Shown: positions 16,762 through 41,730, counted from the whole stretch's first letter. The stretch: 58,429 nt of DNA, filler included, from Basidiobolus meristosporus CBS 931.73 (GCA_002104905.1; 3 parts of 3 records of this genome joined end to end with filler, not necessarily neighbours in it); one strand, 5' to 3'. Notes: generated from the sequence alone by a model not told the origin. Made by a program: numbers and translations.

Positions 16762-16966
16762 AGGGTTAGGGGGAAGAGGGGAAGACAGTCACCAACAGGT
16801 GAAATCTTTATTTCAGTTGAAACAATGAAGCCTTAGGGTTAGGGGGGGGGAGACAGTCACCAACAGGTGAAATCTTTATTTCAGTTAAACAAAGAAGCCA
16901 GTGCTTAGGGGGAGACAGTCACCAACAGGTGAAATCTTTATTTCAGTTGAAACAAAGAAGCCAGTG
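16762..16966 (-). repeat. Three tandem ~65-70 bp retroelement 3'-end units, each beginning with a TTAGGG seed
   Basis: Units begin at 16762 (AGGGTTAGGGGG), 16833 (TTAGGGTTAGGGGGGGGG) and 16905 (TTAGGGGG); each continues GACAGTCACCAACAGGTGAAATCTTTATTTCAGTT...GAAGCC. Confidence 0.95.
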
Positions 16967-17798
16967 CTACTGTTGTAGCTTTGATACCAGAGTGTGTAGC
17001 TGAGGGGAATTTGTAGGTAAGTTAATATGAAGTGATGATAGTTCTTCAGTGCTCAAGACACTGTTCAGTGGGAAGGGGGGTAGCAAGAGAGGTAAGAATG
17101 ACTTGTGAACAACATTAATGAGGGGAATATGATAAGGATTGATATTCATCATAAGGGAGTGTGCTGCTGCAGATATTGCTGCCAAAGGTCTGTCAAGTAC
17201 TTCAGGTAGGCCAGCTTGGGTTTTTCTGACTGCAGAATAAATTCAGCAAACTTCTTGACTTCAGGATCTCCAAGTATAGTTCTCCAGCAGGAGTCAGGTG
17301 TTGGGTGGTGTGTTCTCTTCCAGGCCTTAATCAGTGGGTTGTTGCAGTTGTGAAGTCTGAGGTATAATCTGGTTCTAAGGTAGAGAAGTCTGATCTTATA
17401 GGGCATAAACCCAAAAGCACCAAGAATAGCATGTCTGTAGGGGCATTCAGGCAAATGAGGCACCAAGGAGGTAATGCACCATACTGCAAACTTGTCAAGC
17501 TTAGTGCAGTCTCTAGAAGTAAGAGAGAGAAGTGGTAAGCCAAATACCAGGACAGGGAAGACAAACTGCTTGAGTAGAAGGAGGCAGCTGGGGGCTGAAG
17601 TTGTAGGAGGAGTAACAGCCAGTAGCTTGTGGAGTGCCTGTCTTGCCAGGATAATTCTCTTCTTCAGGTGTGCTCCAGAGTCTAGTCCAGTAGGAAGGAA
17701 AGGAAAGCCAAGATATGTAGCAGAAACCTGAGCAGGTAGAGTGGAGTTCTCCAAGTTGATGGGAGAGCCCAAAGGTACTGTCTTTGCAATGGAAAGCT
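16905..17798 (-). mobile_element. 5'-truncated copy of the telomeric LINE-type RT element (subfamily A), with a frameshift
   Basis: Near-identical to 39467-40358. Identity ends at ggaaagct, followed by TAGGG. A 1-bp deletion splits ORFs 17149-17772 and 16967-17185. Confidence 0.93.
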
Positions 17799-18944
17799 TA
17801 GGGTATAGGAGTTGTGGTAAGGGCTACAAAGGGTAAGAAAGCAGGGGGTCTGGGGGACGCAGTCACCCAGATAATAAAATAAGCAGGGGGTATGGGGGAT
17901 GCAATCCCCCATACTGCTCTTTCTTTATTAAGATTCCTTTCAATTTCCTCTGTTTTCTTTACTTTAATTTTATCCTAACCCTTCCTAACCCTAAACACTT
18001 TTTTTTCATTTTTCATTTTTTATTCAAATTACCATAAATATTGAAACTTATTCTTTGCTCACTGAGTATTCTTACTATCTCACCGTTGATTGTTATCCTT
18101 TTAGCCCTTTATCAATATTGAAATAAAAAAATTGCAAATCAATTATCCTATAAATTTTAGACCAAATATATAGATTTGAAGAATTATTAACTTTATATCA
18201 TTGCTAAAGTCTAGCTCTTTGCTAATGCATATTTATTTATGTTATAACTTACTTAAGACATGTATCATCATATAGCAAGTAAAATATTTATTAATAAAGT
18301 TATATATATCATGATAAAATTTATTACAAAAATAAGGAACTCTCTGATATTCATAGCCTAATTAACTTTTATACACTCTTCAATATTATTGTTTTTAAAT
18401 ATTTAGAATACAAGCAATTTTTAAACCTCTTAATATATCTACTAATAAAAGTATTTCATATATCAAAACTTGAAAATAAATATATTCACAAGAACAATGT
18501 TTATATATTGAAAATATCATAAAAAGTTATAATAAATCGTACCAATAGTTATTCTGCTCAATAGTGGTCATTATTAGTTTTGGGCAACATATATCACGCA
18601 TGACTAATGTTACTCATGGATTGATGAATCAAGTTAAATCCCAGTAGCCCAATTTAAAAATATTTCCTATGATTTTATTGTGAAAAATGACCGCATAATA
18701 TAAAGTAATTATGATATTTTTGATATCCAGAGTATGATAATATAAGTTGGTAGAATTACATACCTGTAACACATTTAACCTGCGCATCATACACAGCCTG
18801 GAGAATATCATTTGATTTTTTATAGATATACCAGCTACACAAAACACATGTTGCAGAGTAACAACTGTGTGGCATTCAAGTGTACAAGAAATCTTGCACC
18901 ATGAACAAACAGAAAATTGAGAGCACATCTAATCTGCATTGCAT
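17799..18944. repeat. Module B, copy 1: G-rich telomere-like start, double GCA hairpin, C-strand telomere-like tract, AT-rich body
   Basis: 1146-bp near-identical duplicate of 38321-39466. This copy continues into unique sequence. Confidence 0.93.
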
Positions 18945-19525
18945 AGGTAACTCCAGAGTCAACCAACAAATTAGTTTGGTGATTATGCCTCTTTGACAGC
19001 TAAATCAAATGATTGGGTGTTATAAGAGTTGAAAAAAAACAAGTGTGCAGTGCTAAACTGCTTCAGAAAATCATAACCATGTTCAACATTTATGAATGGA
19101 GTGATTTATATATAACAGAGTGGTTGATAAAGTATTTATTATACTTCTGGGTGGCAGAGGGATAGCTAAAATAATAAATATTATATTGTAGATACATCAG
19201 ATAGTTTGCAGATAGATGAATCAGCAATTGACATTGAAAAATTTACAATTGAATGTGGAGTATTATATTAAGAATAAAGTTGGTTTAAAGTAGTGGTGAT
19301 AATAGTTCAGATTAAAACAAATATTTGAAATTGTTGGAGTATCAGTCATAGTTGACTAGAAAATAAAGAAATATCTATAATAAGCAGGGTTAGCCAGATT
19401 CATATGAGGCAAAGTAGACTTTGACGTTATTCAGTGATTAAAAGCTTAGTAAAGTAGTATAAACAAGGTTCATAGTAAAATTCTGAAGATAGAAAACAAT
19501 CAGCCAAGATAATACATATCAAGAT

Positions 19526-19993
19526 ATGAGCCAAAGAGTACAAGATTGTTATGCAAATCTCCCTACACATAGAGGAGATTTGCTCTTTAAGAATAGTATT
19601 ACATGGAAATCAGCCTCTAGTGGTAAAGCACCTGAAAAGAAATCAAATAGCGCTTGTAGTGATGTAACTACAAATGAAGAAACAGATACTACTACTGCAA
19701 AATTAACCTTTGGAAGTATAACGCACTTACAAGAGGTCCAGAGAAGAGGGGCAGAGCAATTGGTTCATCTTCAAAGACAGAGGACAATAGCAATTGAAAA
19801 GTTTTGTTCTCATCTACAACTGGATCAAACCATGCCACATTACCAAGTTCTTCAGGTTGCCTACTTAGATTATGAACAGATGAAGAACAATGAGGCAGAG
19901 GCTGATAAATTAACAGCTGATCAGTTGAATGATTTGATTAAGCAGGCAGAAGAAATGTCTTGCAATTGCAATGATAGTCCTTCCACAGGTTAG
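19526..19993 (+). CDS. Hypothetical protein (155 aa)
   Basis: ATG-initiated ORF in AT-rich context; no recognisable motif. Confidence 0.3.
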   Translation: MSQRVQDCYANLPTHRGDLLFKNSITWKSASSGKAPEKKSNSACSDVTTNEETDTTTAKLTFGSITHLQEVQRRGAEQLVHLQRQRTIAIEKFCSHLQLDQTMPHYQVLQVAYLDYEQMKNNEAEADKLTADQLNDLIKQAEEMSCNCNDSPSTG

Positions 19994-20253
19994 TATTTAG
20001 TGTCAGTTGTCATTACATATAGGTATTTATATATGTTGTTTATTTTAAAATAAAGAGAGTTAGCTCATCCAATCATAAACTAATTCTACAATATTGATAT
20101 AAAATAAATGTTTCACCAAAGCTTTAGTGTAAACCAAAATTAAACTTGTAGTGATAAATAATTAAAGAGTAAAACTCATGCTCTATTACATTTATAAAAA
20201 ATAAGTAGTGGTCAAGCAAAAGGAAGGATGGAAATTACTTGTTTCCATAAAAT

Positions 20254-20676
20254 ATGGATAAAAGATCATCAGAAGCAGAAAATACTGTTACGGCTGATTT
20301 AACTCAATGTAGGAGACAAAGAAGAACCAACAGAAGGCAGAGGCCTGAAGAAAGAGGAGAAGATCAAGCAGACAATTCCTGGGAAGTAAATGAAGAAGTA
20401 GTGAAAGTTACCCCTAAACAGTGTTGGAGTAATCCAGTTGTGGAGGCTTTGGCTATGGTGCAAACAGAGCTTCCTGAATACTCATCCACTTCACACCACA
20501 AAATATTGCAAAGTATGTGCCAAAAGATTATTACAATGCAACATACAATAGACAATCTGAAAAAAAAGAATGATGGACTCCAAATGCAAATCAAATATAA
20601 TTTCCACCACTCAACACAAGCATTAATAGCAGAAATGTTATTGAGTCTTTTAAGGAGCAGTACTCTGCAGGGGTGA
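20254..20676 (+). CDS. Hypothetical protein (140 aa, coiled-coil-like)
   Basis: ATG-initiated ORF; heptad-like QKIITMQHTIDNLKKKNDGLQMQI. Confidence 0.3.
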   Translation: MDKRSSEAENTVTADLTQCRRQRRTNRRQRPEERGEDQADNSWEVNEEVVKVTPKQCWSNPVVEALAMVQTELPEYSSTSHHKILQSMCQKIITMQHTIDNLKKKNDGLQMQIKYNFHHSTQALIAEMLLSLLRSSTLQG

Positions 20677-21279
20677 TTGATGTCAAAACCCTCAGTTGAA
20701 GGCGTTTTACTGATACAACTGCACCAGTTACACCATCTACAAGCAGTCAAGCAGAGAGACCATCAACCACCAATGAAGATGAAGAACAGAGTGTTACTTG
20801 TGGTGTGCATCCAGATGAAGATATTGTAGATAGTATCAGTGAATCACACTCTTCAATTACTTCATGTAAAAGGCCACAATTACAGCCCCACCTACAGAAA
20901 TACCAGTTTCAGGTACATCAATGCCACCATTGCTGCCACCACTACCACTACCACCGCCATCAACAATATCTTGAAGAAGTCAGATAAATAAAATCAATGA
21001 TTCCTTTGTGTATTATGCAGAGTTTAATTGATATATTAATAAAGTATGCTTAGTGCATTATCTACTTGACTAATATTTAACTAGCCAGTTGTAGACTATA
21101 ATGGATAAACTTGAGGCAAGCCACAAAGATGGTTACCCTGTTCATCATGACAACAATAGATATGATGACCGGAGAAAATGATTACACACCGTATCAACAA
21201 TGTCTTGGTTTATATCTGGCAGGAGTAATATCCGTTACTAGGCGCAGTTATTCTTTGGTGATGTCACACCTTCACTAAG

Positions 21280-22131
21280 AGACATCTTTTTATATGGTGG
21301 ATATCTTGTAGAGCACTTGAGAGATTTATAATTGGAGGGTCACCATAGTAATAGTGGTAGGAGAAGTACCAGTGCCAGTAGCCAAAATTTCTCTATAACA
21401 GGAATTTTTGGCAAACTTGACTCTGGCATTTTGAGAATTAGAATGACTGATTTTAGAATACTGAAGATGCTAGAACCAGTACCCTAATGGACAGCAAAAT
21501 AGTCAACCTATTTTTTCTGCAGGATACTATTACTAGAATGAGAGTCACAGGAAGACTTCTTCTTGGTAATAGTTGCGCAAGTGATCACAAGAATCTTTAT
21601 GTATTTGGTGGCTTTGAGGTAGAGAACAAAATTTCCAACCCAACAACTAACAAAAGTGTAGATGGAGAAAATATCAAAGCAGCAGCAACTATTCATTGTA
21701 AAGATAATTTCAATTGTAAATATCCAAGTAAGCTACAAGTTATTTGTTACATGGATGCTGATCAGAATTGGAGAATGTGTAGTAGTAGTACCCTTCAAAC
21801 TAAACCATTCATGGGGAACCCCAAAAACATGCCAACCCAACAAGCCTGGGCAATTCTAACATATGCATACAATTGCTTATTTCTACTTGGTGGATATGCC
21901 ATTTCCAACACAAAAATACCTTTATTCCCACCAGAGGATACCCCCTTTTTAAATGAGTTTTATTGCTTGAGGCTATGCACTGGGACTTACAAGGAACTCT
22001 ATATTCACTCCACAATTCAAAAGGAGTTACTAGGGGATGCTACTTTGGTTGTCAATGAATCTGGAAATCTAATTCATTACATCAACAAGGAAAACGTTGC
22101 TTTTATGTATGACATTGATAATAGAATATGA
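21280..22131 (+). pseudogene. Kelch-repeat protein remnant
   Basis: Three Kelch-type GG motifs: DIFLYGGY (~21281), NLYVFGGF and CLFLLGGY (in ORF 21487-22131); frame breaks upstream. Confidence 0.6.
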
Positions 22132-22215
22132 ATTTATCCACCTGACCCAGCACAACATATTACTACCTAGCAACTTCTGGGACAAATAATCAATTAGTCA
22201 GCTGGAGTACCACTC

Positions 22216-23927
22216 ATGAGTATGGATGGAAGAAACAATAATTTACTTAGACAGAGTGCTGAGATTCTCAAAGTTCCTTTTAAGAATCATCAAATCTTTG
22301 GTGTGCATTGGCTTAAATACACAGAAATACTTCATAATGGAGTGCTGCCTGCAGATTCCATGGGGTTGGGGAAAACTCTAGAGATATTGAGCTTGATTGT
22401 GGAAACACCTATGCAACAACCAAATCTCATTATTGTTCTATTATCATTACTATTGAATTGGCTAGAAGAAATCAAGAGCAAAGCACAAATATCAATTCAT
22501 GAGATACATGTGTTCCATGGGAAATATTGAGCCATATGTATGGTTGATATGAAGGCCAAATGGATTGTCCTCACTACCTATCATACGCTTTGTATAGAAG
22601 CAAAGAACACTGGATCACCTATCTGGAAGCTGGAATTTGGTTGAGTGTAGCTGATGAAGCAGATATACTGAAGTACTATTCTGGTGGAAGCACAAACACA
22701 ATAGCCAAGGTGAATGAAAAGTCCTTGATTCTTATCACTGTGACCCCTTCTCAAAATGATCTTATGGATATATACTTGTACTTTATTCTCTTTGGTCTAT
22801 GGGAAGGCACTCCAGAGAATTTTCAATGACTATTGAGTGAGGAGAAGAATGCTAATAGGCTTGTTGACTGGGTGGTGAAAAGATTAGGCCATATAGTTTT
22901 GAGACAAGTACCAGAGTCTCAACTTTTTGGAGAGAGAGCAGTATAAATGATTGATATACAAGAGCGGATTATTCTGTGTCAATTTTCCCTGGAAGAACAA
23001 AAGAAATATACTGCACTACTAGGAGAACTGCCAAATGACATTGGTAAGATGGGAGCTAATACATATTTGCACCTATTTTCATGTCACCCATTGATGTATA
23101 CCTGGAGCAGAGAGAAGAATATTAATTTGCAATGAATGAATACTATTGACAGGGAAGAGGATGATGTAGAAGCTGTTTCTGCTGGTATTCTTGATGAGAT
23201 AAGTACATTACTAGGTAGTGGAGAAGAAGAAGAAGAAGAAGCAGTAGCAAGTACATCTAATTCTAACCCCTCTTCATTGTTGCCCAAAATGACTTCTGAG
23301 CAAGTGGAAATAGATCACGCCGTTGATAACAATAATGCCACTCCCAATGAAGGTATACTTATAACAAACACCCAGCAAAGAGGCAATACTACAGAGGGGT
23401 TAGATTTGGAACAAGTCTTTATGGAGGATTTTATTTCTGGTGTTGCTAATAACACAGTTAACAAACATAGTGTAAAGACACAGTAAGTGATTGATATCCT
23501 GCAAAAGGAGATACTTGCTAATGGGGAGCACAATTGGGTTGTCATATTTGCCTCTTTTAATCTGATGCTTGATTTAATTGCATATTATTTGATGAGAAAT
23601 TCAATCCCTTTCCTTACTATAACTGGATATACTCCAGTACAAGCTCAAAAAAGCAATCTCAAACAATTTGCACCACCAGTTCCAGAGAATGGAATCCAGG
23701 TTTTATTAATGAACCTTAAATGTGATGCATTTGGGTTGAATTTACAGATGGTGTCAGTGGCAATCTTCACTGATAACTGGCAGAATCTATTTGTTGAAGC
23801 CCAAGCAAAAGCTTGTGTATGGAGAATGAATCAGCCAAAGGATGTAGTCAGTTACCAGCTGATAAAGCAGGATTCAATTGAGTCCCAAGGACTTATTGAC
23901 AGTCAAACCCAAAAGCTTAACTTATAG
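22216..23927 (+). pseudogene. SNF2-family (SF2) helicase/ATPase, disrupted
   Basis: GVLPADSMGLGKTLEILSLI (motif I), LLLNWLEEI (Ia), VADEADIL (DEAH-like), VVIFASF..MLDLI (IV), VLLMNLKCDAFGLNL (V), EAQAKACVWRMNQ (VI), split over several ORFs. Confidence 0.85.
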
Positions 23928-25637
23928 ACTAGAATGAGCAATACAATTGTTGATGAATCTTCCAAAGTTCCTATTTCTTTGAACCTTCAACAGCAAGATG
24001 ACATGTATGTAAGTCAATTATGTGGAGTACAGGATAAAGATGAAGACAAGGATACTGCAGCAGCTACTAGCACACCCTGTGACAATATTATAGATGATGA
24101 TGATGATGATTTGAAGAAGAAAAGAAAAGGAAAGGGAAAGGAGAAGGTTGTTGAATTGGATAGCAGTGCAGTAATAATAGTGTCTATATTGGGTTTCCTA
24201 TATGGAATGTGCTAAATATTACTAGTTGCTTGATTGAACTTGTATTAAGACTGCGTAATATAAATAAAGTAACTGAGTTGATTGCAATGTATACATGAAT
24301 ATAATATTTTTATTATGTGCAATAGTAACAAACAATTTAATATTTACAGATTACAGTCTTAATGATAGTTGAAATGATACTCGTGAAAATCTGTTGTGTT
24401 AGATGCCATGCAGGCTCAGAGTAAATAGGTTTGTCATGAATACTTATTTAGGGGAAATTGAAGCAAAATCAATCTTAGTATTAGGTGTTGTCAATATGAT
24501 TTGATGGGCAAATAAATACACTTGAAACCAAACGGAGTTGATTCATTATAAAATTTCATTGAATCAAATTTACTCCTGATCACCATGCTGTATTATGGCA
24601 ACAGACTTTAGACTTGGATAGAGTACTCTAAATCTTCAAGATATTACCAAGATATATATCCCATTAAACTTGTTTTAGGTTTTAATCCTTTACCTGTCCA
24701 AAGAACCTAGTGGTTATTACACTGAATAGTTTTACACATACAAACAATAATGAACTGCCAAAAAGAAATAGGTAAGAATCTATATTCATGATTTCAACAA
24801 TAAATACAAACAGAAGAAATTGGGAGAAATTCGCATGTTTTATTAATCTAATACTATTGTAGCTAATGTAACTAAGAATTCAAGAAAAATAAGGAGAAAA
24901 GGCAAAAAAAAGGTGCGTAGAGGTAGAGGGTGCAGAGGAGGAGGAGGAGGAGAAGGAAGGCATACAAAACCCCAGAAGAATCTCACAAAATTGGCAGAGG
25001 CGCCAGAGGAAGTACATAACAGAATCAACGAGAGTGAAAGCAATCAAGTAATCCTTATTCAAGCAGTCAACAGCTTTGCCTTGGCATTAGAACAAGCCAG
25101 TATTGGTGTTAGTAGATCAGCAGGGAATTTTGTGCAAGACAGGGATGCTAAGTGTAAAGTAATCCAATCGCAGCGTAATCTACCTTCCTCTTATCCGTTG
25201 AATAACCAACCGAAGAAGAGGATGAGCAATATAGAAGATAATGGAGAACAAAATACTTCATCAGTTTCTAAAGGTAAAGTAGCATCTATTACATTAATCT
25301 ACAAAGTTGCCAAGAATGCTAATTACGTAACAAATTGCTAATTGATATATCCTTAGTTGCTACATATGCTACCACTGCTACAATATCAAATGAGAAGACT
25401 GCTGCTGCTACCGGTATTTTTCAAAAAACTATTCTTTTGATTGTAAAACCAAAATGCTCATTCTAATGAGATAATTTTCAAAAAGCAATTGATATTTATG
25501 AGACTCTGAGCAGCGAGAGTGATGAAGATAATGATACTCATTGCTTAACAAGGAAGGAAGGAACTGGTCATGATGATAGTTTCCATACTACTGCCGATTG
25601 TGATGAAAGTGACGGTGTTTGCAATAATCAGAGCTCT

Positions 25638-27521
25638 GTGAAAACTAACAAAGTGGTAGAGGTTGAGATTGTGGTTAATAGTGTAGGAACATCATCGGAT
25701 AATTTCACACCTGGTTCAGATTTACCAGAACAACAAATCTCACCTTCAAGCTCCCCCAGAGAATCAACAAACAAAGTTTATCCAACTTGTGAAGAATTTG
25801 ATGCAGCAATACAAGATTTGTTACTCTCGTCGTCAAGCTCACAAAAGAACAAAGATCTTACTAGAGGAGTATCTATATCAGAAATCGAAAGTATTGCCAA
25901 TGAAGTTATGTTTAATGAGGCATCCCGCACAACTTCTTTGGTAGCAGTAGTGACTGGTAACAAAGAAGCCATTGAACAAGGCGGACTTCTTTGCCATTAC
26001 GATACTCCTATGAGCGCAGCTGAGTTAAAGTTACTTGTCTCAATGCATCAGGAGTTCCTAGCATTTTGGTTAGAGGTATTCTACCAGGAGCCTGGAAGGA
26101 TGACACGCATTCTACATGGGAATCGAGGCCTTAAAGGGATTTCATCCACTCAGGCAAATGTCTATTGGAATGCAACAATCAAACAGTTCTTGCTGTTGTC
26201 TATAAGGATCTCTAATGCAAATCTCCAAAATCAAGACAAATGTTGGGCTGTGGTTGCTAAAAAGGAAAATGTAAAGTCATATTTACTGGTGAGAAGGTTT
26301 AAACATGGTTCAGCCCCGCTTAGCCCATCCACAATGAATAATGTCTTACATCATTTATTGAAAGCGGTGTATTTATATAATATCTGCTATAATCCCCAAA
26401 CAAAAAATGCACCAAATGTGCGCTGCAAAGTTGAGATGTACCTACATGCACTAGGAAGCTTTGCTGGACAAATGAAAAATCAAAATATCTTACTTTGTCG
26501 ACAACAAAAGCAAATTGAGTGTAGAGTGGAAGAAGCAGGGCCAACTGATAGAGAAATAAGCATATTATTCTCAGGGCTTTTGAGGAATATGCAGACTATC
26601 CTAGAGACAGTTTTGCCCTTGGATGAGTTGTCATATGCAGTATTGGAGAACACCGAACTGAACCAGCAGCAACAGAGTACTTTGGGGAAATGGAGTTTTG
26701 TAACAGCTAAAAGTGGGAGAATGATTACCTACCTGACTGAAACCACTCACAGCAAGGAGTCACCTCATTGTCTGCTTCGTCAGTTATCAGTAAGGTTCCA
26801 ACAGTTACTTTATACTGCTATTCAAATTTCAGCACCAAGTAGGAGATGTAAGCCACTGGCTTATATGTTATTACATTCGTCATATCAGCATTCTGCAAGA
26901 GATATCCGGTATTCAGGGGAGCGGAATGTAATGTATGATCCCAAGAATGAACAGTTTATTTTTAATCTCAACAAAGATAAGCGTCCAGGCGGTACTTTAT
27001 TGTCGATGCCAGTAGAGTTGACCAAGTACATCATCTACTGGATTTCTTTGCTTCGCCCAACATGGGTACTGAATCAAGGCCAAGGTCACCCATATTTCTT
27101 TACTCGGTTATGTGGGAAGGGGAGTCTTGATCCGCAACGTACTGGCACTCTATTCCTAGCTGCAATTTGGCAGGTGTTTTCTGATTCAAACAGATCATTT
27201 GATCAGAGAGAATTTTGCCGCTGGTGTTCTGGTTATGGAATATCATATGGCTTAGTTGATGAATATGCTGCTGCTATGAATCATCATCCATCCACGGCCA
27301 GACAGATCTACGCCCCTGAAACCCAGGAATCATTATCTGCTACTGCTATTAACTATTACCAGTGCAATGTGCTACGTAGAAGACTTGGTGGGGCTGAGGT
27401 TAATGATGACGATGATAATGATGATGACAATGATAACAATGATGGTACTTATTTGAAGTGTGGTCGTTTGCAGAAGCAGCGTCGAATAGTGTATACAACC
27501 TCTGAGGATGATGAACAATGA
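25638..27521 (+). CDS. Putative tyrosine recombinase/integrase (627-aa open frame; true start uncertain)
   Basis: Catalytic-type motifs in the expected order and spacing: APSRR (R), FIFNLNKDK (K), PVELTKYIIYWI, PYFF, FDQR (HxxR-like), AAAMNHHPSTARQIY (H...Y). Intronless, with acidic low-complexity ends. Confidence 0.7.
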   Translation: MKTNKVVEVEIVVNSVGTSSDNFTPGSDLPEQQISPSSSPRESTNKVYPTCEEFDAAIQDLLLSSSSSQKNKDLTRGVSISEIESIANEVMFNEASRTTSLVAVVTGNKEAIEQGGLLCHYDTPMSAAELKLLVSMHQEFLAFWLEVFYQEPGRMTRILHGNRGLKGISSTQANVYWNATIKQFLLLSIRISNANLQNQDKCWAVVAKKENVKSYLLVRRFKHGSAPLSPSTMNNVLHHLLKAVYLYNICYNPQTKNAPNVRCKVEMYLHALGSFAGQMKNQNILLCRQQKQIECRVEEAGPTDREISILFSGLLRNMQTILETVLPLDELSYAVLENTELNQQQQSTLGKWSFVTAKSGRMITYLTETTHSKESPHCLLRQLSVRFQQLLYTAIQISAPSRRCKPLAYMLLHSSYQHSARDIRYSGERNVMYDPKNEQFIFNLNKDKRPGGTLLSMPVELTKYIIYWISLLRPTWVLNQGQGHPYFFTRLCGKGSLDPQRTGTLFLAAIWQVFSDSNRSFDQREFCRWCSGYGISYGLVDEYAAAMNHHPSTARQIYAPETQESLSATAINYYQCNVLRRRLGGAEVNDDDDNDDDNDNNDGTYLKCGRLQKQRRIVYTTSEDDEQ

Positions 27522-28499
27522 GATTCTTCTGGATAATTAATCTTGAAGAATACCTTCCAATTTTCCTTACAAAGTGTTATTATTTGTAAATTTTAGTAAA
27601 CATCAAACCCAAAAGTTGTCTATCATTTAGTCAAGTCAAGTTAGTAGCTCCTCTATATCAATTGGCAATAGTGCAGTGGTATCTGCTACTTTTAAGATAT
27701 AGTGTGAAACTTGGTGTATGAGTAGTGATTGATGATTGGAGCGCTAGTATGAATGATGAATACTAGTCATGATTTATATATACGTCTATTTTGTATCTCC
27801 TTCTTTATTCCTTTCCTTCTACTGAGAAATTTGATATTTGGTAGTTGTAGCGCAAAGCAGTCATTTGCTCAATGGCAAAATGCAATAGGTCCTTTGTGAC
27901 CTAGAGGCATGTGTGGTTATTGGAATCCCATGTACTCTGACTGTGAGACTCCTTTGAGGAAGTGCTCCCACTTATTATTATTTCTCAAGTGATCCACCTA
28001 GCTATTGAGTGGTAGGGGTGAGGGTTAGAGTATTTTGCATAATATTTGCCAGCCCTGATTCTGACCTCCGCCTTGCTCTAGTCTAGTGTACTACAGTTTG
28101 AGATGTGGTTTTCAACACGATGTGGTCATTTGTCACTTTTTTTTGCTTCTTGACAATAGGTTCTTTTGTTCTGAACCTAGAGGCACCCTTTGCCTAAAGT
28201 AGAGGTGTACTCTGACTATGTCCTTGGCATTTCCCGAGTTGAATGTGTTGCCACATTTCCTGAACTGTAGACGTGTTGATCCCTCTTGGCTGAAACCTAT
28301 GTTGGGAGTAATATATAGCTTCCTATAGCCTTGGGTTTTAAGCAATAATTAGTAGCATCCATCTTTGGTTTGGCACCACGCAATCATCCTCTAACCTCCT
28401 CTACCTTTCTTTTAAGGTGAGTTGAGCTGTGAAAGAGGCAGGTTTTCTTGAAATTTGGCTGCAATAAACAGACGTTGTTTGTTGGTTGCACTGATTGCA

Positions 28500-29065: not shown

Positions 29066-29282
29066 TATATATTTCAGAAATATTTTACACCTGTCATGTT
29101 AATAACGGCTGGTATAGTTGTACATTAATAAACTTGTGAAATAGCACACCATTTATTAGGCAACATCTCTCCCGCGCAATACAGCTCACCCATGGATAGC
29201 AATGAACTCTTCACTGTAGATATATATTTCCCAATTATGAAATTAGTTGTATTATGGATAAAATAAGTCTTAAGAAATCGGG

Positions 29283-31852
29283 CTATATATTATTTAAGAA
29301 AATGAATTTTTTGTTGATATCTGGATCGCACAGCATAGGTTGCCATTGCTGAAAGAAATTGGTTGACCCTCTGATCATTCCCGGCGACATAGTGTTTTTG
29401 CACCCATACGGGGTGTGCATTTCATATGGATCCTCATTGTCATGCAGCCTAATGAATTTGCTTGAATAGACAACCTTCTCTTGATTGTAGTTCTGGTTCA
29501 TTATGCGCAAGAAGACATCCTGTAAGGATGCTCCCAAGATCCCATAGTTGGCAATTCCCATTGCTCTACCGTTCAATTTCAGAAAGCGTAGCAAGGCCGG
29601 GATTTCACGGTTACAGTTGGTTGGAATCATAATCACGCTTTCAGCACCCAAATCGGAGGTACTGACGGCTTTGGGAATGAGGCGCCAAACTCAAGTTAGG
29701 ATCTCAACGTTGGTTATATGTGTGGTTGCATTTGTCTTGACAACAGTGAGAGTATAGCCTACCCCATAGTTAGCCTTGAAGAACAATGAGCTTCCAATAC
29801 ACTGGAGCCTGCTGTAACACACAATAGCGATCCAATCCCCAAGCAGGTTGGCCTTCTCCATGAAATGGGTGGTTAGCACAATTATACGGCCTGCTCAATT
29901 ATGGTTGATGACATCCCAGGTGGATCTCCTGGAATAAGGATCCATACCGCTAGTTGGCTCATCAAGGAATACAACCTTGGAGTCCCCAATAAAAGCGATG
30001 GCTACGGATAGCTTTTGCTTTTGCCCTCCAGATAAGGTCTGCACATAGCTATCTGCCTTTTCCAGTAGGCCAGTCTGAGCAATGAATTTCTCCACGTTGC
30101 CAGATATTTTTGAATTTGGCACTCCCTTCAGGCCGGCGTACAGAGTAAGTGTCTGCCTGACGGTCAGCCTGTCCCACAGTATATCATGTTGAGGACAGAC
30201 GCCTAGCCGCTGACAAACCTGCTGCAAATCCCAACGTACACTATAGCCATTGTTGATAGCATCTCCTGAAGTGATGGGAATCATCCCAGTGAGCATTGAG
30301 ATAGTCGTAGATTTCCCACATCCATTATGGCCCAGGAATGAAACCACCTGACCCTCATACATATTGATGCTAAGTAGGTCAACTGCAGGAGTTTGGGAAT
30401 TCCCGTAAACCTTGGTCAAACCCTTCAGAGACAACCCTACTTTTTGCTTGCTGGATACTGGCTCAACAAGGTGCTCCAAATCTTCCTGGTTGTTGGCGTA
30501 GAATAGAAGATTTGATGGCGTCCCTTTCCAGTATGACATCTTGAATGGAAACAATATCGGTTTGGGCGTCCCATATTTGCTAGGGATCACCTGGCTGAGA
30601 TACCAAGCCAGAACAAGGTACAAGAAAGTGTCCAAGACCAACATCATATAGGTCCCCAGCAAGCTCAAGTTGTTTTCCAAAGATTCCAAGATATCACTGG
30701 CTCCCAGCCCTGCCCCGCTCTGCTCCGCTCTTTCAAGACAAAGGCCATATTCCCATAAAGAAAAGCAGCTGGGGAAAATATCAACGCCAGGCCTTGAACC
30801 AATGCCCCTGCAGATGATCTTGAGGCTATTTGGCCCAAGGCTGACATGCAGCAAACAACCAGCATGGAGACAAGCCCCGAGAATTTAGATTTCAAGAAGA
30901 ATGAGAATAGCGTAAATGACAAGGCGGTGATCGACATGCCAGTAAGCAGGTACAGCATCAGCACCAGAAATAAGCTAGACCTGGGAAAGATCACATAATG
31001 AACTACAGTGGAACACAGCACCCATGGAATGCTATGGGTCAGAAGTCCAGTGATCAGCCAGCTGCAATAATACAACTGCTCACTAAGGCCCATCATCAAC
31101 ATCCCTTCCTTGATCTTGCTTTCTTTTTCTAGCGTCATTTGCCCAGTCAAATCCAAGATGGTTACTGTGAAGACAAGGATGAAAAATGTGCACCCAACAT
31201 CCCGGAGAATATCATGAAACTTGCAAAGATACTCAGCCTTGAGGCCGTCTTGATTTGACTCAGTGAACTGGATCTTCATTGGTTGCCAGTCACTGGCAAT
31301 AGGCGCATTCCCCAATACCTGGGAGATGATGGCCCAGTCTACTAGTAACTGTAATGGAAGCGCATCATTGGACTTGAAATTCTCAATGTTGGAGTCAACA
31401 TTGGTCATGCCATCCCGCTTGATTATTGGAATGGCGCAAATTGTGTAATTCCATGAATCACCGGCCTGAGTAAAAAGCAGCAAAGCCCAACATGGATATG
31501 TGTTGCTGCTGCAGAAGGAGTTCAAAGCATCAGTGGTGGGGAACTCTTGCAAGTGATCTGCTGCTATGCTGGGACTTAATTTGGATAGAATCTGCAACAC
31601 GCTACTTTGATCTCCAGATTGATCAGCCCATCCAAGCTTCTGGGTGGCAAAATTGCTAACTGTAAGCTTGATTGGAGTGGCCTCTATTGCATAGCCGTAG
31701 GTTTGGTTGTTGGCAAATTTGGTGACACTGCCACGGATGCTGGCAAAGAGCCCAATGATTAACAATGGAACAAGGACATTCCTACATGTGCTGCGGATCC
31801 AGCTTGCCTTGTACAATAGGAAATTCTTATACAATAAATACTTAAGAGTCAT
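29283..31852 (-). pseudogene. ABCA-subfamily ABC transporter, N-terminal half, disrupted
   Basis: LLYKNFLL start typical of ABCA; TM region; NBD with GHNGCGKST, LSGGQKQKL, VFLDEPTSGMDP. Frame changes near 30700, 29890 and 29650; no second TMD/NBD. Confidence 0.85.
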
Positions 31853-32820
31853 TTGAAAGTTGGTCTAACGTTGTTGAGGTACATGGTGCGGGATTTGTTT
31901 GCTTTTATTGCTAAGCGTGTTGCCAAGAAAATAAGTTGTGTAGCCCTTTGATTTTCTTGGCTATTTATGCTTGTACTAACTAGCCCCATATTCCTTCCGT
32001 GTTGGTTGAACACCAGATATACAAAGCCAGTCTTGTGCAATCAATCTTGGCTCCAACAACGTGGATCAAATCATCATGCCAAGATGTATTATGACTATCC
32101 AGATTGAAAGTAATCACAATGTATGTAACTGGGTATTGGGCTTATGGAGTAGTGGCCTGGAAACCATTGCTTTAGCTGAATGTTCCATGAGTCAGATAGC
32201 AATTGATAGAGTACAGTTAGAGTTATTGGTATTTAGCATTCTGTGTATCATTTTGCCCATAGTTTTGTTATTGATCATATTATATATAAATACAAGAAAA
32301 ATAGCCATGATCTTGTTTGCAAGCCATACATGAATCAACACCTGGAACACAATATTTGAATCTACACAATAACCAGTGATACATTAAGTATGCTGCTATA
32401 TTTGCACTGTTGCTTAACTTGCCATAGCTCCCAACATTTCACAACTGAAGATATTGGTGGTGTTGAAGCATGTAGAGATACAAAATAAGGAAGACAACTA
32501 TGCTCCAAATATGTCACTACATCACATGCAGCTGTTTGTGGCCACAGAACCCATTCACATAAATGAGACAAAACACAGTAAGCACAGCTTTGGACCATAC
32601 CGTCTCTCAAACAATGGAGCACAATAGAGTAATATCCTGTCACTTGGGAGAATGTTTTGTACGGAGGGAGTCATGTTTGTTGACAAAATAAGCATGGCGG
32701 CAAAATGGTTGACAAATAAGGAGAGTACTAGAGTGGGTCTGAAGCGTGGAGATAGTCACATGTCAGTAAGTGAAGTGCCATACCTCCACAATTCAGTGAC
32801 ACAAATATTAACTTGACGCT

Positions 32821-33784
32821 TGGATTTTCAGAGGCATACCAACATTAGTGCTTGCTTTCGTATCATACTTCTATCTTCCAGACTTCCCAGAGACCGCATC
32901 ATTCCTCATGGAAGATGAACGTCAATTGCTGATGGCACGGCTCAAGCATGATGCAGGTGCTGCATCAGCGACTGAATTCAAAGAATTCAAAGATGGCTTT
33001 ATCGACTGGAAGATTTACTTGCATATGGTTGTCTACATATGCGGATCAACTCCATTGTATAGCTTGAGCTTATTCTTGCCAAGTATCGTAAGCGGGATGG
33101 GATTCACCAGCCTTACAGCCCAGCTCATGTCTTCTCCTCCTTGTGCCATTGCCTGTGCCTTCACTATTCTCGTATCCCTCCATGCTGATCAGAAGAAGGA
33201 GCGTGGGTTCCATATTGCACTTTGGATGTTTATCGGGATGATAGGTTACCTGTTGCTCATTGTACTTAGACATCATGGATCAACAGCACTATATATTTTG
33301 GCAATTATTACGACCACCGGAGTATTTGCAAATATTCCTAGTATGCTGTTGTGGTTCACCAACAATATTGGTGGCCATACCAAGAGGGCAGTAGCATCTG
33401 CTCTCATCATCTTCTTCGGTAACATTGGCGGAGCGTTAGGAGGCCAGGTAAATTATATTTAGCCAATTCAATCCTTGGAATCCCGAGCTCACAGTCCTGT
33501 TGTTGAAAGATCTACAGAGCCAATGATGGTCCATATTACCCACGTGGCCATGCTATTTGCTTGAGTTGCATGGCTCTTGGCTGGGTAACCGCATTGGTGT
33601 TCAAATGGCTATTGATTTGTGAAGACAAGCAACGTGATAATTTGACCATTGAACAGTATGAAAAGGAAAGTAATGTTATTGAGCCAGGCAATTGGGTACG
33701 TCTCTTAAGAATCCCTTGTCACTAGAATCATCATTAAGATATCTCTTATATATATAGCATCCAGATTTCCGTTACATCTCATAA
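32821..33784 (+). pseudogene. MFS transporter (Dal5/Tna1 anion:cation symporter family), C-terminal half only
   Basis: WIFRGIPTLVLAF..YLPDFPETASFL, NNIGGHTKRAVA, then spliced IYRANDGPYYPRGH and HPDFRYIS*. No N-terminal coding sequence upstream. Confidence 0.75.
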
Positions 33785-35110: not shown

Positions 35111-35115
35111 TGGTC

Positions 35116-36292: not shown

Positions 36293-36550
36293 TAGGTGTA
36301 GTAGGAAAGGGTTAGGGTGTAGGTGTTATAGTAAGGGCTAGGAAAAGGTTAGAAGAGCAGGGGGTCTGGGGGATGCAGTCCCCTAGAGAATAAAAAAGCA
36401 GGGGGTTTGGGGGATGCAATCCCCCATACTGCTCCCATACTCTTTAAATTCCTGTGGGATTACTTTTCTCTCATTCTTGGTTCTGGTCCCTTAGGGTTAG
36501 AATTCCTCCTCCTAACCCTTATCACCCTAACCATAAATATTTTTACCCTA
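36292..36550. repeat. Diverged relative of the module B terminus (double GCA hairpin)
   Basis: Degenerate TTAGGG run, then AGAGCAGGGGGTCTGGGGGATGCAGTCCCCTAGA...AGCAGGGGGTTTGGGGGATGCAATCCCCCATACTGCTC, then CCTAACCC/CCCTAACC tract. Confidence 0.85.
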
Positions 36551-36959
36551 CAATTGGCACATTGTCTGCTCATATAGTGGGCATGTCTGGGCCAATATTT
36601 GTCTCCCTATACTGTCCATACGCTCTGTATAAGTCTTGATGACTATTTAATTAATAAATTGTTATTTTTAATGTATATCTAATAATTAATGGGAATCATC
36701 CCAAGCTAGCCACAATCCCATATTTTGATAAGCTTTGGGCACCATAAATTGCGCGGCCCTAATATGATAAAAAAATTCATGGCCAATACAAATTTTCTGT
36801 AACCTGATTGCTTTTACCAAATATAAAGTGTATCCAAAAGTTCAATATATATTATGACTATAATAGAAACTTTATTTGACACCATTGCAACTACTACTTA
36901 TGTTCTATGCGCACATGTATCCCGCGGGAATTGTAAAACTTAGCCACGTGGTACAAAAG

Positions 36960-37202
36960 TGCTTTTATTTTTCATCATGATAGTTTTACATGAGTTCCTA
37001 ACGCACTTCGAAAGTACACAGTAGCCATACCCCAACAGGTTTTAAGGATGTCCACTAGCTACGTCTACTTGTGTCTAGCGGGAGCCATCAATCATCAGCC
37101 GCGAAATACTGAAATGCTTTTATTTTTCATCATGCCAGATTTGTATGAATCCCTAACGCACTTTCATAGTGCGCGGTAACCATACCCCAACAGGTTTTAA
37201 GG
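36960..37202. repeat. Two 88-bp diverged direct repeats (36960-37047, 37115-37202)
   Basis: tgcttttatttttcatcatg...cctaacgcactt...ccataccccaacaggttttaagg occurs twice. Confidence 0.85.
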
Positions 37203-38316: not shown

Positions 38317-38320
38317 AGGG

Positions 38321-39466
38321 TAGGGTATAGGAGTTGTGGTAAGGGCTACAAAGGGTAAGAGAGCAGGGGGTCTGGGGGACGCAGTCACCCAGATAATAAA
38401 ATAAGCAGGGGGTATGGGGGATGCAATCCCCCATACTGCTCTTTCTTTATTAAGATTCCTTTCAATTTCCTCTGTTTTCTTTACTTTAATTTTATCCTAA
38501 CCCTTCCTAACCCTAAACACTTTTTTTTCATTTTTCATTTTTTATTCAAATTACCATAAATATTGAAACTTATTCTTTGCTCACTGAGTATTCTTACTAT
38601 CTCACCGTTGATTGTTATCCTTTTAGCCCTTTATCAATATTGAAATAAAAAAATTGCAAATCAATTATCCTATAAATTTTAGACCAATTATATAGATTTG
38701 AAGAATTATTAACTTTATATCATTGCTAAAGTCTAGCTCTTTGCTAATGCATATTTATTTATGTTATAACTTACTTAAGACATGTATCATCATATAGCAA
38801 GTAAAATATTTATTAATAAAGTTATATATATCATGATAAAATTTATTACAAAAATAAGGAACTCTCTGATATTCATAGCCTAATTAACTTTTATACACTC
38901 TTCAATATTATTTTTTTTAAATATTTAGAATACAAGCAATTTTTAAACCTCTTAATATATCTACTAATAAAAGTATTTCATATCTGAAAACTTGAAAATA
39001 AATATATTCACAAGAACAATGTTTATATATTGAAAATATCATAAAAAGTTATAATAAATCGTACCAATAGTTATTCTGCTCAATAGTGGTCATTATTAGT
39101 TTTGGGCAACATATATCACGCATGACTAATGTTACTCATGGATTGATGAATCAAGTTAAATCCCAGTAGCCCAATTTAAAAATATTTCCTATGATTTTAT
39201 TGTGAAAAATGACCGCATAGTATAATGTAATTTTGATATTTTAGATATCCAGAGTATGATAATATAAGTTGGTAGAATTACATACCTGTAACACATTTAA
39301 CCTGCGCATCATACACAGCCTGGAGAATATCATTTGATTTTTTATAGATATACCAGCTACACAAAACACATGTTGCAGAGTAACAACTGTGTGGCATTCA
39401 AGTGTACAAGAAATCTTGCACCATGAACAAACAGAAAATTGAGAGCACATCTAATCTGCATTGCAT
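38321..39466. repeat. Module B, copy 2, truncated and capped by TTAGGG
   Basis: Duplicate of 17799-18944. Diverges after attgcat into TTAGGGCTAGGGGGG. Confidence 0.93.
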
Positions 39467-39535
39467 TTAGGGCTAGGGGGGAGACAGTCACCAACAGGTG
39501 AAATCTTTATTTCAGTTGAAACAAAGAAGCCAGCG

Positions 39536-41508
39536 CTACTGTTGTAGCTTTGATACAAGAGTGTGTAGCTGAGGGGAATTAGTAGGTAAGTTAATAAGAA
39601 GTGATGATAGTTCTTCAGTGCTCAACACACTGTTCAGTGGGAAGGGGGGTAGCAAGAGAGGTAAGAATGACTTGTGAACAACATTAATGAGGGGAATGTG
39701 ATAAGGATTGATATTCATCATAAAGGGAGTGTGCTGCTGCAGATATTGCTGCCAAAGGTCTGTCAAGTACTTCAGGTAGGCCAGCTTGGGTTTTTCTGAC
39801 TGCAGAATAAATTCAGCAAACTTCTTGACTTCAGGATCTCCAAGTATGGTTCTCCAGCAGGAGCCAGGTGTTGTGTGGTGTGTTCTCTTCCAGGCCTTAA
39901 TCAGTGGGTTGTTGCAGTTGTGAAGTCTGAGGTATAATCTGGTTCTTAGGTAGAGAAGTCTGATCTTATAGGGCATAAACCCAAAAGCACCAAGAATAGC
40001 ATGTCTGTAGGGGCATTCAGGCAAATGAGGCACCAAGGAGGTAATGCACCATACTGCAAACTTGTCAAGCTTAGTGCAGTCTCTAGAAGTAAGAGAGAGA
40101 AGTGGTAAGCCAAATTCCAGGACAGGGAAGACAAACTGCTTGAGTAGAAGGAGGCAGCTGGGAGCTGAAGTTGTAGGAGGAGTAACAGCCAGTAGCTTGT
40201 GGAGTGCCTGTCTTGCTAGGATAATTCTCTTCTTCAGGTGTGCTCCAGAGTCTAGTCCAGTAGGAAGGAAAGGAAAGCCAAGATATGTAGCAGAAACCTG
40301 AGCAGGTAGAGTGGAGTTCTCCAAGTTGATGGGAGTGCCCAAAGGTACTGTCTTTGCAATGGAAAGCTGGAGATTATTCTTCTGCAGATACTGGTGGATG
40401 GTCTGGGAGTCTTGTTGCACATTGGAGGAGGATATTCTGATGTCATCAGCAAAGAGAGTAACCAGGCAGTCAGCTGAGAGTCTTGGGAAATCATTCAGGA
40501 AGATGGCAAACAGTATAGGACCAAGCACAGAGCCTTGAACCACTCCATTAGGAACTGAGAACACAGCTGATTGCTCACTTGGGTGCAGAATTCTTGCTTG
40601 TGGATCCAGAAACAGAGATCTGACAAGGAGGGTGAGAGAGGTACTGGAGAAGCATTGCAACTTGGACCAAAGCAGATTTCTGTCAACAGAATCAAAGGCC
40701 TTAGTAATATCAAACAGAACAGAGGGATACTTGCACTGGAGAGAGTGATCTTGGCTAAGTATGACTGCATATTCCAAGGAGAGGCCAGGAACAAAGCCAA
40801 ACTGTGCAGGATGAAACTTGAGGGAGTCAGAGTAGAGCTCCTGAGCAAGCAGAAGCTCAAACACCTTTCTGCAGGTGGGCAGCAGAGATATTGGTCTGTA
40901 GGAGCTAGGATCCAGGTGCTTTCCTTTACCCTTGTACAGTGGCAGAACATTTGCAAAGGACCATTCCTCAGGAGTAGAAAGCTGGGCTGAGCATTGCTGA
41001 AACAGTGGAAGCAGAAGTGCAGACATGGCCTTGGTACTAGTCTTCAGAAGCTCATAGGAGATTGTGTCCACACCTGGAGCAGTAGAGTTGGGAAGCCTCT
41101 TGAGCACATTATGGATTCTCCCTTGATCAAGTGCAAGTGGGATGGGCAGAGTCTTGAAGTCAGGATGAAAGCCAGGAGTTGGGTACTGCTTTGTAGAGAA
41201 GAAGATGTTAGCCAGCTGTTCTGTTGAAGGTAACTTCCTGGAAGAGGGCCTCATTGCCCTGTAGAGTCTTGATACTGTTCTTGTTATAGAGTTGGAAGAT
41301 TGCAGAGGCAAGGAACTCATAATATGATCCCAGAGCTGAGTATGCAGAGTGTGGTGAATTGCCTTGGAGTGGTGTATTGCTGTCAGGAGGAGTTTCTCTG
41401 TTTTTGGGTTAGGGAAACTCAGGTAGCTTTGTTGCAGGGCTGAAACAATGGATTCCCATTTTCTTGAGGTAACAGCAGTAGTCTTGCATGGCAGTGAGAG
41501 GGAGGCAG
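39536..41508 (-). CDS. Non-LTR (LINE-type) reverse transcriptase of telomeric element A (39467-41508); frame open up to the telomere junction
   Basis: APGVD, YRPISLL..RKVFE, QFGF, FDITKAFDSV, GVVQGSVLGPILF, LFADD, YLG. ATG ORF 39536-41320 plus about 63 stop-free codons upstream to 41508. No APE, REL, RNase H or CCHC recognisable in what is present. Confidence 0.93.
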
Positions 41509-41730
41509 TTAGGGTTAGGGTTAGGGTTAGGGTTAGGGTTAGGGTTAGGGTTAGGGTTAGGGTTAGGGTTAGGGTTAGGGTTAGGGTTAGGGTTAGGGTT
41601 AGGGTTAGGGTTAGGGTTAGGGTTAGGGTTAGGGTTAGGGTTAGGGTTAGGGTTAGGGTTAGGGTTAGGGTTAGGGTTAGGGTTAGGGTTAGGGTTAGGG
41701 TTAGGGTTAGGGTTAGGGTTAGGGTTAGGG
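41509..41730 (+). repeat. Telomeric repeat array (TTAGGG)37
   Basis: 222 nt of perfect TTAGGG at the contig end, G-strand pointing outward. Confidence 0.98.

Follow-up and report, generated by a model that had tools for sequence, protein, structure and literature searches.

The 10 kb of DNA at positions 17799-28030 of the window (the whole stretch analysed here, 58,429 nt from Basidiobolus meristosporus CBS 931.73) raises the question of whether a repeat seeded on telomeric sequence and the genes that follow it, among them those of a SNF2-family ATPase and of a putative tyrosine recombinase (YR), represent one mobile element or sequences of separate origin. The block proved to be mostly real, yet decayed and only partly bounded. 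Its best explanation, which we put forward tentatively and rate as slightly short of probable, is the defunct remnant of a hitherto undescribed DNA element that targets telomeres by means of its YR and resembles the fungal telomere-linked helicase (TLH) units, with SNF2 rather than RecQ.

Chromosome-end setting and the repeated head

The contig piece that carries the block (16680-41730) has a true (TTAGGG)n telomere at one end (41508..41730, plus strand, 37 repeats, next to an N spacer) and carries a LINE array there. The array includes a minus-strand reverse-transcriptase element at 39469..41507 (RVT_1, E 1.4e-25), 5'-truncated and telomere-capped. Another 5'-truncated minus-strand copy of this LINE at 16900..17798 (98% to 39469-40368) forms the left flank of the unit and is preceded by three tandem LINE-tail stubs at 16777-16968. 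The 17799 copy of the unit is internal, 13 kb from the telomere. Beyond it lies a host-derived block at 29283..33700 with a fragmented ABC transporter (minus strand) and an MFS transporter (plus strand; Pfam ABC_tran, ABC2_membrane_3 and MFS_1), which is probably outside the unit, and for whose ABC gene variant contigs occur among the reads.

The unit begins at a TTAGGG seed at the junction between LINE and head (17798..17803, plus strand). As described in the first-pass annotation, hairpins follow: the head of ~200 nt (17799..17995, plus strand), common to the heads at 36310 and 38321, starts with ~45 nt of degenerate telomere repeats, contains twin GC hairpins at 17841-17919 (z -5.4 relative to 300 base-shuffled sequences) and inverted telomere motifs CCTAACC at 17974 and 17984, and is predicted to fold back on itself. 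Together with an AT-rich, non-coding body it forms module B (17799..18944, plus strand), and the reported recurrence of the first 1146 bp at 38321 was borne out (99.2% over 1146 nt, 9 differences). This distally truncated copy (38321..39466, plus strand) has a LINE-tail stub on one side and TTTAGGG plus LINE on the other. A third head, 87% alike over 132 nt and likewise with the CCTAACC pair, precedes a body unrelated to module B (36310..37200, plus strand for head and body), behind which come a TTAGGG remnant and a LINE-type tail. A TTAGGG remnant directly precedes all three heads of the window, which share one orientation. The inverted CCTAACC pair is conserved in the heads despite their unrelated bodies, and all 6 CCTAACC motifs found outside the terminal array of the contig piece lie within heads, against 0.7 expected. 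The scan of viral contigs confirmed no relative of the head motif.

These features could also be read without any role of the YR in telomere targeting, if the LINE reverse transcriptase copied the unit from a minus-strand RNA ending in the hairpin head, in a Terminon-like manner, with the genes of the unit as antisense cargo. Indeed, the heads match LINE additions in orientation, in their TTAGGG seeds and in variable distal truncation (the 38321 copy being cut off at TTTAGGG and a LINE tail), and head stubs have just the appearance of truncated LINE additions, which need no YR. Among the read contigs, LINE junctions with GGGTTA-type inserts are numerous, and one joint connects 17919 to the LINE tail at 16909 (runs X1 and X2, one sample); introns of antisense genes would be kept, and Terminons attach to telomeres and carry extra ORFs, according to the accessible part of PMC6431247. 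Such a passenger would nevertheless require a 10-kb antisense template and leaves the multicopy YR family described below unexplained; moreover, the GGTGAAATCTTTATT tail motif occurs at 9 plus-strand sites across the window and at none within any head, and an Rfam scan of 16680-41730 gave neither a ribozyme nor any other match at E 1. We consider this origin distinctly unlikely.

Genes of the unit

All genes of the unit lie on the plus strand, as had been claimed, and the small orphan ORFs reported after the AT-rich DNA were found at 19493..19993 (166 codons between stops, without a Pfam or PHROG match below E 0.05) and at 20251..20676 (141 codons, best matches at E 0.015-0.03), the latter with a low-complexity frame behind it at 20700-20984. 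The weak Pfam and PHROG hits to these ORFs (E 0.015-0.26) were taken to be chance.

Further downstream, the described Kelch repeats and SNF2 ATPase were recovered in part. A broken Kelch-like region (21101..22131, plus strand; Pfam Kelch E 0.0011) shares its frame with the SNF2 start across three stops, although its scores remain below Pfam cut-offs (18.8 bits versus 50, and 15.5 versus 25.3). The SNF2-family gene (22198..24215, plus strand) encodes both expected Pfam domains, an N-terminal SNF2-rel_dom (PF00176, E 6.6e-12) and Helicase_C (PF00271, E 1.2e-07), and its best matches are SNF2-family proteins, but it is a pseudogene: 11 internal stops and two frame changes interrupt 21101-24215, and some of these breaks could fall within unrecognised introns. 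The shared frame suggests that both parts possibly belonged to one Kelch-SNF2 fusion gene. No close cellular relative of the SNF2 part was found (best match 43% over 64% of a 110-aa piece), and a scan of viral contigs with its second copy, P0006, confirmed none. The acidic ORFs listed separately at first are in fact an acidic insert (23136-23483) and an acidic tail of the SNF2 pseudogene, together with an acidic N-terminal extension of the YR.

The predicted YR gene (24750..27521, plus strand) corresponds to an 846-aa public gene model, P0009, whose sequence maps letter for letter to four exons (about 24750-24770, 24862-25272, 25356-25412 and 25470-27521). Its three predicted introns contradict the earlier view that the block has no clear introns. 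The longest exon is a long ORF with YR-type motifs, namely Arg (about 26844), Lys (26979), His (27282) and Tyr (27309), at positions presumed to be catalytic from the spacing in lambda Int, Cre and XerD. The predicted second catalytic Arg is replaced by Cys at 27216 in this copy, whereas the R-K-R-H-Y motifs are invariant in P0002 and P0007. With its SNF2 gene disrupted and a predicted catalytic arginine of the YR missing, the 17799 copy is probably inactive.

Assignment as a tyrosine recombinase is based on these motifs, on language-model look-alikes and on a database label, and the initial identification holds to that extent, with no Pfam match or confident fold. Pfam searches of the YR ORF and P0002 returned no family (PF00589 being absent even at E 10), and those of P0007 only two unrelated weak families. 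In the Atlas, YR features match phage-integrase clusters at 0.95-0.96, with an integrase family on 15-73% of members, as well as a cluster named 'EsV-1-213-like' (0.96) and a Preplasmiviricota cluster (0.95). The two structure predictions are of low confidence (pLDDT 33 and 40); for the pLDDT 40 model, Foldseek ranked Cre first at E 0.85, and superposition on Cre gave Z 4.1 and rmsd 4.3 over 88 aligned residues. Fold searches yielded no significant match, the wide search listing helical bundles only, and profile searches of YR alignments against solved structures returned nothing relevant.

One unit or a composite

Sequence relatives of the YR were restricted to Basidiobolus in the searches run: a second SNF2-YR locus, a subfamily with 55% identity that is represented at four loci, and a single locus in B. 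ranarum. At the second SNF2-YR locus, the C-terminal part of SNF2 (P0006) and the N- and C-terminal parts of the YR (P0004 and P0005) bear consecutive tags on one 345-kb contig, so that the SNF2-YR junction appears to have been copied as a block. P0006 differs from the window's SNF2 at 22 of 280 aligned positions, and the two copies decayed at different positions, the pattern expected of two descendants of an intact unit. The second locus may stem from duplication by ploidy; the accessible text of PMC7466969 contains no statement on genome duplication in B. meristosporus. The four loci of the second subfamily, 87-100% alike, are on contigs of 14-265 kb; three of their four YR models are partial or end early, and word-based searches found no SNF2 for any of them. 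The only metagenome locus (1 of 88 pattern matches, 29%) proved to sit in a spurious frame, surrounded by bacterial housekeeping genes, and was discarded.

Composition along the 10 kb is uneven. The observed/expected CpG ratio rises from 0.11 at 18945-24400, a value resembling those of the LINE (0.01) and of copia (0.13), to 0.41 at 24401-27900, close to the 0.37 of the adjacent host block (p about 1e-7 for the step). This step suggests different histories for the SNF2 and YR halves, and the 10 kb may therefore be composite. Summed contig depth, which is not a copy number, is mostly higher in module B (450-850) and Kelch-SNF2 (260-860) than in the YR (118-177), with a dip to about 118 at 19731-20448, and one read contig matches 20153-20789 and then continues into other sequence.

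A patchwork would account for such discontinuities, with the head as a small subtelomeric repeat, Kelch-SNF2 as an old repeat behind it and the YR as a separate Crypton-like element. End joining or break-induced replication would have combined them at an unstable end, with a single later duplication of the junction. The CpG step at about 24250, the uneven depth with a contig leaving the unit, the third head with its unrelated body, the second-subfamily YRs for which no SNF2 was found and the total of only two known SNF2-YR loci all argue for it, and the CpG step, the depth with the departing contig and the second-subfamily YRs also count against a YR element; truncated MoTeR telomeric retroelements also capture internal sequence, according to the portion of PMC7367193 available. 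It fits less well with the single orientation of all genes, with an SNF2 not recognisable as a host gene, and with a telomere-like tract just past the YR, as expected of a single unit; CpG retention, for its part, could mean recent selection on the still-open YR frame. Overall, we regard a patchwork as unlikely.

The tract in question (28011..28028, plus strand, GGTAGGGGTGAGGGTTAG), 490 nt past the YR stop, is the candidate right boundary. The degenerate telomere-like motif reported there is present, with a 16/20 match to the telomere repeat, the best in 18 kb. Of 500 dinucleotide-shuffled versions of 18020-35900, 10 score as high, as does 1 of 300 when only the 1080 nt downstream of the YR are shuffled, a stretch chosen post hoc. 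Host DNA in another piece of the window includes a 17/20 match at 6966, which makes the motif no more than suggestive. Between the first 600 nt and 18401-36290, no terminal repeat above 16 nt, inverted or direct, was found. One unbranched read contig (27950-28536) spans the candidate boundary. A joint of right end to head was absent from the 15 of 26 read-contig joints listed in a comparison that covered the head, in contigs that drop rare forms; the sole joint of a second comparison (1/1), which listed 6 of 21 loose ends and did not cover the head, was not of this type either.

An integrated fragment of a DNA virus of Polinton-like or giant-virus type, entering telomeres by means of its YR as in some nimaviruses, was also considered. 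The virus clusters among the Atlas look-alikes point in this direction, and a viral origin would, given the gene repertoires of such viruses, also accommodate orphan ORFs of one orientation, a divergent SNF2 and a Kelch-like region. The virus-like character first suggested was not substantiated: no capsid, packaging ATPase or polymerase was matched in the scanned ORFs (Pfam, PHROGs), alignment scans of viral contigs confirmed no relative of YR, head or SNF2, tblastn of P0007 against 50,697 phage records found none, the YR model has introns, and only 10 kb separate the head from the candidate right end. A viral origin is in our view very improbable.

The Y'-like character proposed at the outset fared better. 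The YR-element reading can be credited with a head behind TTAGGG in three instances, telomere-facing genes, SNF2-YR at two loci, a multicopy YR family and the 28011 tract. The genes are not single-copy with conserved synteny, yet the head does occur without them. Counting against this reading, the analysis of the window, its read contigs and the related gene models brought to light neither a circle junction nor an empty site, nor a further full-length copy whose ends are defined.

Proposed mechanism and relation to known systems

In the YR-element reading, the predicted YR would direct the element into the TTAGGG repeats of chromosome ends, a circle being the probable inserting form. Head and right end, once joined, would form the attachment site of the circle with a telomere-like core. 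A YR tetramer would recombine this core with telomeric repeats, remnants of which would persist on either side. The role of the SNF2 ATPase, together with a Kelch-like adaptor, would be to free the telomere of chromatin or to shift the recombination intermediate. On breaking, terminal copies would be repaired by telomerase or a LINE, giving head-only stubs such as 38321-39466 and 36310, and the 17799 copy would have been internalised later, with the host-derived block added beyond. The active enzyme would be that of a naturally intact relative, for example P0007. A more specific version seems doubtful, in which Basidiobolus has telomere-homing DNA circles of its own that a lineage-specific YR integrates into TTAGGG repeats while a Kelch-SNF2 remodeller opens up telomeric chromatin, an independent origin of the design of recombinase plus helicase at the telomere that TLH and Y' units may share. 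Such circles would coexist with a telomere-stacking LINE.

Literature searches with partial coverage of subscription papers (most of which, like Repbase, were outside the search) found no report joining tyrosine recombinase, SNF2 and telomeric-repeat mobile elements in fungi, none joining Basidiobolus, telomere and tyrosine recombinase, none joining SNF2, tyrosine recombinase, kelch and transposon, and none joining telomere-linked helicase with tyrosine recombinase. A eukaryotic recombinase aimed at TTAGGG repeats, if confirmed, would be of interest as a tool, and even a patchwork would include a YR family with no relative outside Basidiobolus in the searches run.

Among known YR elements, DIRS and Ngaro retrotransposons carry reverse transcriptase and RNase H inside the element, and no reverse-transcriptase match was found among the 12 ORFs and fragments of the unit that were scanned. 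Starships have a DUF3435 captain YR as first gene, whereas in this unit the YR comes last and is without a Pfam match. Cryptons (CryptonF, CryptonS) have a YR but no reverse transcriptase, are multicopy and in many cases show short end direct repeats, as stated in the accessible part of PMC3212892. The TTAGGG-like remnants at both proposed unit ends are compatible with their 5-6 bp terminal direct repeats. Unlike CryptonF, with its YR fused to GCR1_C, the Basidiobolus YR has neither GCR1_C nor another Crypton Pfam match, and the unit adds SNF2, orphan genes and a telomere-like head.

Viral precedents exist for two features. Telomere-specific, YR-associated insertion, with repeats on both flanks and possible episomes, is described for nimaviruses (majaniviruses, pemoniviruses) in the available portion of PMC10871703; these are viruses of about 280-400 kb in crustaceans, and neither viral core genes nor a sequence link to them were found in the Basidiobolus unit. 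Phaeoviral insertions in Ectocarpus have the YR gene near one end, an inverted repeat at one terminus and a proposed circular intermediate, according to the part of PMC13236599 at hand, but phaeoviruses are giant viruses inserting at CC dinucleotides, and no alignment-level similarity to the unit was found. Terminons and MoTeRs, with head-to-tail arrays, short telomere remnants, 5' truncation and captured genes between units (accessible sections of PMC6431247 and PMC7367193), describe the neighbouring LINE array well; a Terminon, however, has a Penelope-type reverse transcriptase and a 3' hammerhead ribozyme, whereas the unit has no reverse transcriptase, no detected hammerhead, and genes that would be antisense to the template.

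The closest parallel is with TLH (Magnaporthe region I) and Y' units, in which a helicase-superfamily gene likewise faces the telomere behind a sharp boundary block. In the available text of PMC1635262, Magnaporthe TLH regions have CCTAACC, TTAGGG and a palindrome upstream of the helicase, are truncated distally and include many dead copies disrupted by stops and frameshifts; variable distal truncation and dead copies are common to both systems. TLH and Y' encode RecQ-type helicases, in contrast to the SNF2 with its Kelch-like part; the YR is a separate downstream gene with no TLH protein among its matches, the host is a zoopagomycote, and the copy is internal. How TLH and Y' units spread between chromosome ends is a long-standing open question. 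If the YR-element reading is correct, the Basidiobolus unit would provide a second, independent case, from an early-diverging fungus and with the same layout but a different ATPase family and a stand-alone recombinase, for units of this type being recombinase-driven.

A repeated head at a telomeric LINE array

The block running from 17799 to a candidate end near 28030 is a real, decayed, telomere-associated unit. It lies in the contig piece 16680-41730, set apart from the other contigs of the window by N spacers (16580-16679 and 41731-41830) and ending in 37 telomere repeats. A minus-strand LINE in this piece (RVT_1, E 1.4e-25, Pfam), truncated at its 5′ end, abuts the terminal telomere, and a TTAGGG remnant lies ahead of each LINE tail stub and partial LINE copy. 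The telomeric array (16777-16968, 35969-36105, 37202-38318 and 39469-41730) comprises LINE tails, a unit with only a gag-like ORF (37299-38111) and an RT unit; all members share a hairpin-plus-AATAAA tail, with short TTAGGG remnants between them, and many truncation points are visible in reads.

The unit starts at the TTAGGG at 17798, immediately after a 5′-truncated LINE. As the first-pass annotation had claimed, its first 1146 nt (module B, 17799-18944, i.e. the head of about 200 nt and an AT-rich body) are present again at 38321, with 9 differences, in a copy terminating in TTTAGGG and a LINE tail. The resemblance of a third head, at 36310, to that at 17799 is confined to its initial ~130 nt (87%) and one short stretch about 200 nt in, and the body behind it is unrelated to that of the unit. 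Conserved in the head are degenerate telomere repeats, a pair of GC hairpins (300 base shuffles give them a z of -5.4) and two CCTAACC motifs in inverted form; a fold-back structure of the head is predicted. Outside the terminal array, CCTAACC is found six times in the piece, all six inside heads, with 0.7 expected. Read contigs include one joint between 17919 and a LINE tail (sequencing runs X1 and X2, one sample), head-to-tail repeats of the hairpin unit (run X3) and head-like pieces (run X4, from a different sample than X1 and X2). Given the copies at 38321 and 36310, the conserved motifs and the read contigs, the head is a repeated, defined end. That the unit is a passenger of the LINE beside which it starts is unlikely; the LINE tail motif is absent from the head in comparisons within the window.

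In run X3, which lacks the predicted recombinase, the single hairpin unit (17883-17914) stands head to tail at high depth with 7-10 letters between copies, possibly a satellite built from the head.

Decayed genes and a predicted Basidiobolus recombinase family

The two orphan ORFs of the unit have no credible family match in Pfam or PHROGs. Behind them, Kelch repeats directly followed by a SNF2 ATPase had been described; the SNF2 domains are indeed clear (Pfam), but the Kelch signal falls below Pfam cut-offs and the region (21101-24215) is interrupted by 11 stops and changes frame twice. Since the Kelch-like frame continues into the start of SNF2 across three stops, the two may represent one fusion gene. 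A single close SNF2 relative was found among 76 candidates (P0006, from Basidiobolus); otherwise, the best of 18 hits among 649 candidates reaches 43% across 64% of the query sequence, and the hits that carry an organism name come from bacteria or a protist. Loose contig ends of run X1 at 23079-23120 resemble a SNF2 paralog that has diverged further, mainly by silent substitutions, hinting at more SNF2 subfamilies. Run X3, containing almost none of the unit's words, shows an isolated high-depth bin over the SNF2 C-terminal part (23412-23972).

The long ORF of the unit is part of an 846-aa gene model (P0009) mapping exactly to four predicted exons, contrary to the earlier statement that there were no clear introns. 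It has no Pfam match and is predicted to be a tyrosine recombinase (YR) on several grounds: the R-K-R-H-Y motif set is invariant in its relatives P0002 and P0007; look-alikes by protein features (Atlas), all together one source of evidence, fall among integrase clusters; the relative P0002 carries a UniRef label of tyrosine recombinase; and its predicted structure, itself a poor model, matches Cre weakly. The catalytic positions were placed by the spacing in lambda Int, Cre and XerD. At 27216, 22 residues before the conserved His, the unit's YR has Cys where P0002, P0005 (second locus) and P0007 (second subfamily) have Arg; P0001, which ends out of frame, has Gln. A read contig with zero differences covers 26924-27396, so that the Cys codon is not an assembly error. 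An enzyme from this copy is predicted to be catalytically inactive.

A sequence search with the YR found four proteins among 7997 scored candidates, and a second search three among 1.84 billion representatives, all from Basidiobolus. With cluster members, the loci are that of the window, a second locus, four second-subfamily loci (P0001, P0003, the naturally intact P0007, and P0008; 87-100% alike, and 55% identical to the window YR over 559 aa) and a single protein of B. ranarum. At the second locus, SNF2-C, YR-N and YR-C carry consecutive gene tags on a contig of 345 kb, its YR being two separate models with the middle absent. This locus differs from the unit at 22/280, 38/274 and 5/142 aligned residues (the first two counts including poorly aligned ends), is without two of the unit's SNF2 stops and retains the arginine replaced at 27216. 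This locus may be a duplicate from ploidy. By sequence, the copies are multicopy, truncated and decaying independently, a pattern that looks like that of a transposon family, and the YR family is undescribed and, in these searches, restricted to the genus.

Candidate right end and cohesion of the unit

The tract at 28011-28030, proposed earlier as the far boundary, is telomere-like (16/20, the best match in 18020-35900), but no second copy marks a right boundary near 28011 in the window or the read contigs, and host DNA of another window piece holds a better match (17/20). Its score was reached by 10 of 500 dinucleotide shuffles of 18020-35900 and, when the kilobase that follows the YR was shuffled 300 times, once; its gapped score exceeded all 30 shuffles. 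AT skew is negative from about 27000 onward. The junction is real DNA, because one difference-free contig, the sole read contig over 27988-28346, spans 27950-28536. Distal to 28011 come genes for ABC and MFS transporters, in fragments, with another telomeric array after them. A direct repeat of ~110 nt (28555-28664 and 28864-28968, 75% alike), with no clear reading frame, lies just past the candidate end. Another piece holds telomere-like motifs between host genes (6966-6985 and 11522-11532), to which a telomere-repeat factor may bind.

CpG observed/expected is 0.11 at 18945-24400 versus 0.41 at 24401-27900, and the change is placed best close to 24250 (p about 1e-7); this step may reflect selection or a separate origin. 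Summed contig depth is mostly higher over module B and Kelch-SNF2 than over YR, depth here not being a copy number, with many window alleles absent from contigs (63% of sampled words present). One read contig departs from the unit at 20153. The CpG step, the depth and the departing contig are evidence for a composite. A patchwork assembled by end repair is somewhat unlikely. The sole perfect plus-strand TTAGGG between 17804 and 35966, at 24448, some 200 nt away from where CpG changes between SNF2 and YR, is probably meaningless, 3.8 being expected by chance in 17 kb.

Elsewhere in the window, two copia-type elements (12529-16204 and 44486-48145) are 95% alike, and several LTR-like copies stand alone, e.g. 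an inverted pair at 35116-35903. In the last piece (53586-58429), a gypsy-type retroelement forms a near-perfect palindrome of 4.8 kb, its arms 99% complementary, which may be a fold-back or an artefact of assembly.

Possible mobilisation and known systems

The favoured reading, at a little short of even confidence, is that the unit is a YR-mobilised, telomere-targeting DNA element. Its anatomy and family structure are observed, and from them we infer every step of mobilisation: a circle would arise by the right end joining the head, and would integrate into TTAGGG repeats with SNF2 as helper, while head-only stubs would result from distal breakage and subsequent healing.

The combination of YR, SNF2, telomere and mobile element had no report in the literature searched. 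Nimaviral insertion into telomere repeats is linked to a YR (PMC10871703). That the unit is itself a viral fragment is quite improbable. Cryptons (PMC3212892), phaeoviral elements (PMC13236599), Polinton-like viruses (PMC10120064), Terminons (PMC6431247) and MoTeRs (PMC7367193) each have one trait in common with the unit and a defining trait unmatched or undecided. Its layout resembles Magnaporthe telomere-linked helicase (TLH) region I (PMC1635262); the ATPase of the unit is SNF2 instead, and the unit is therefore not a member of the TLH region class.
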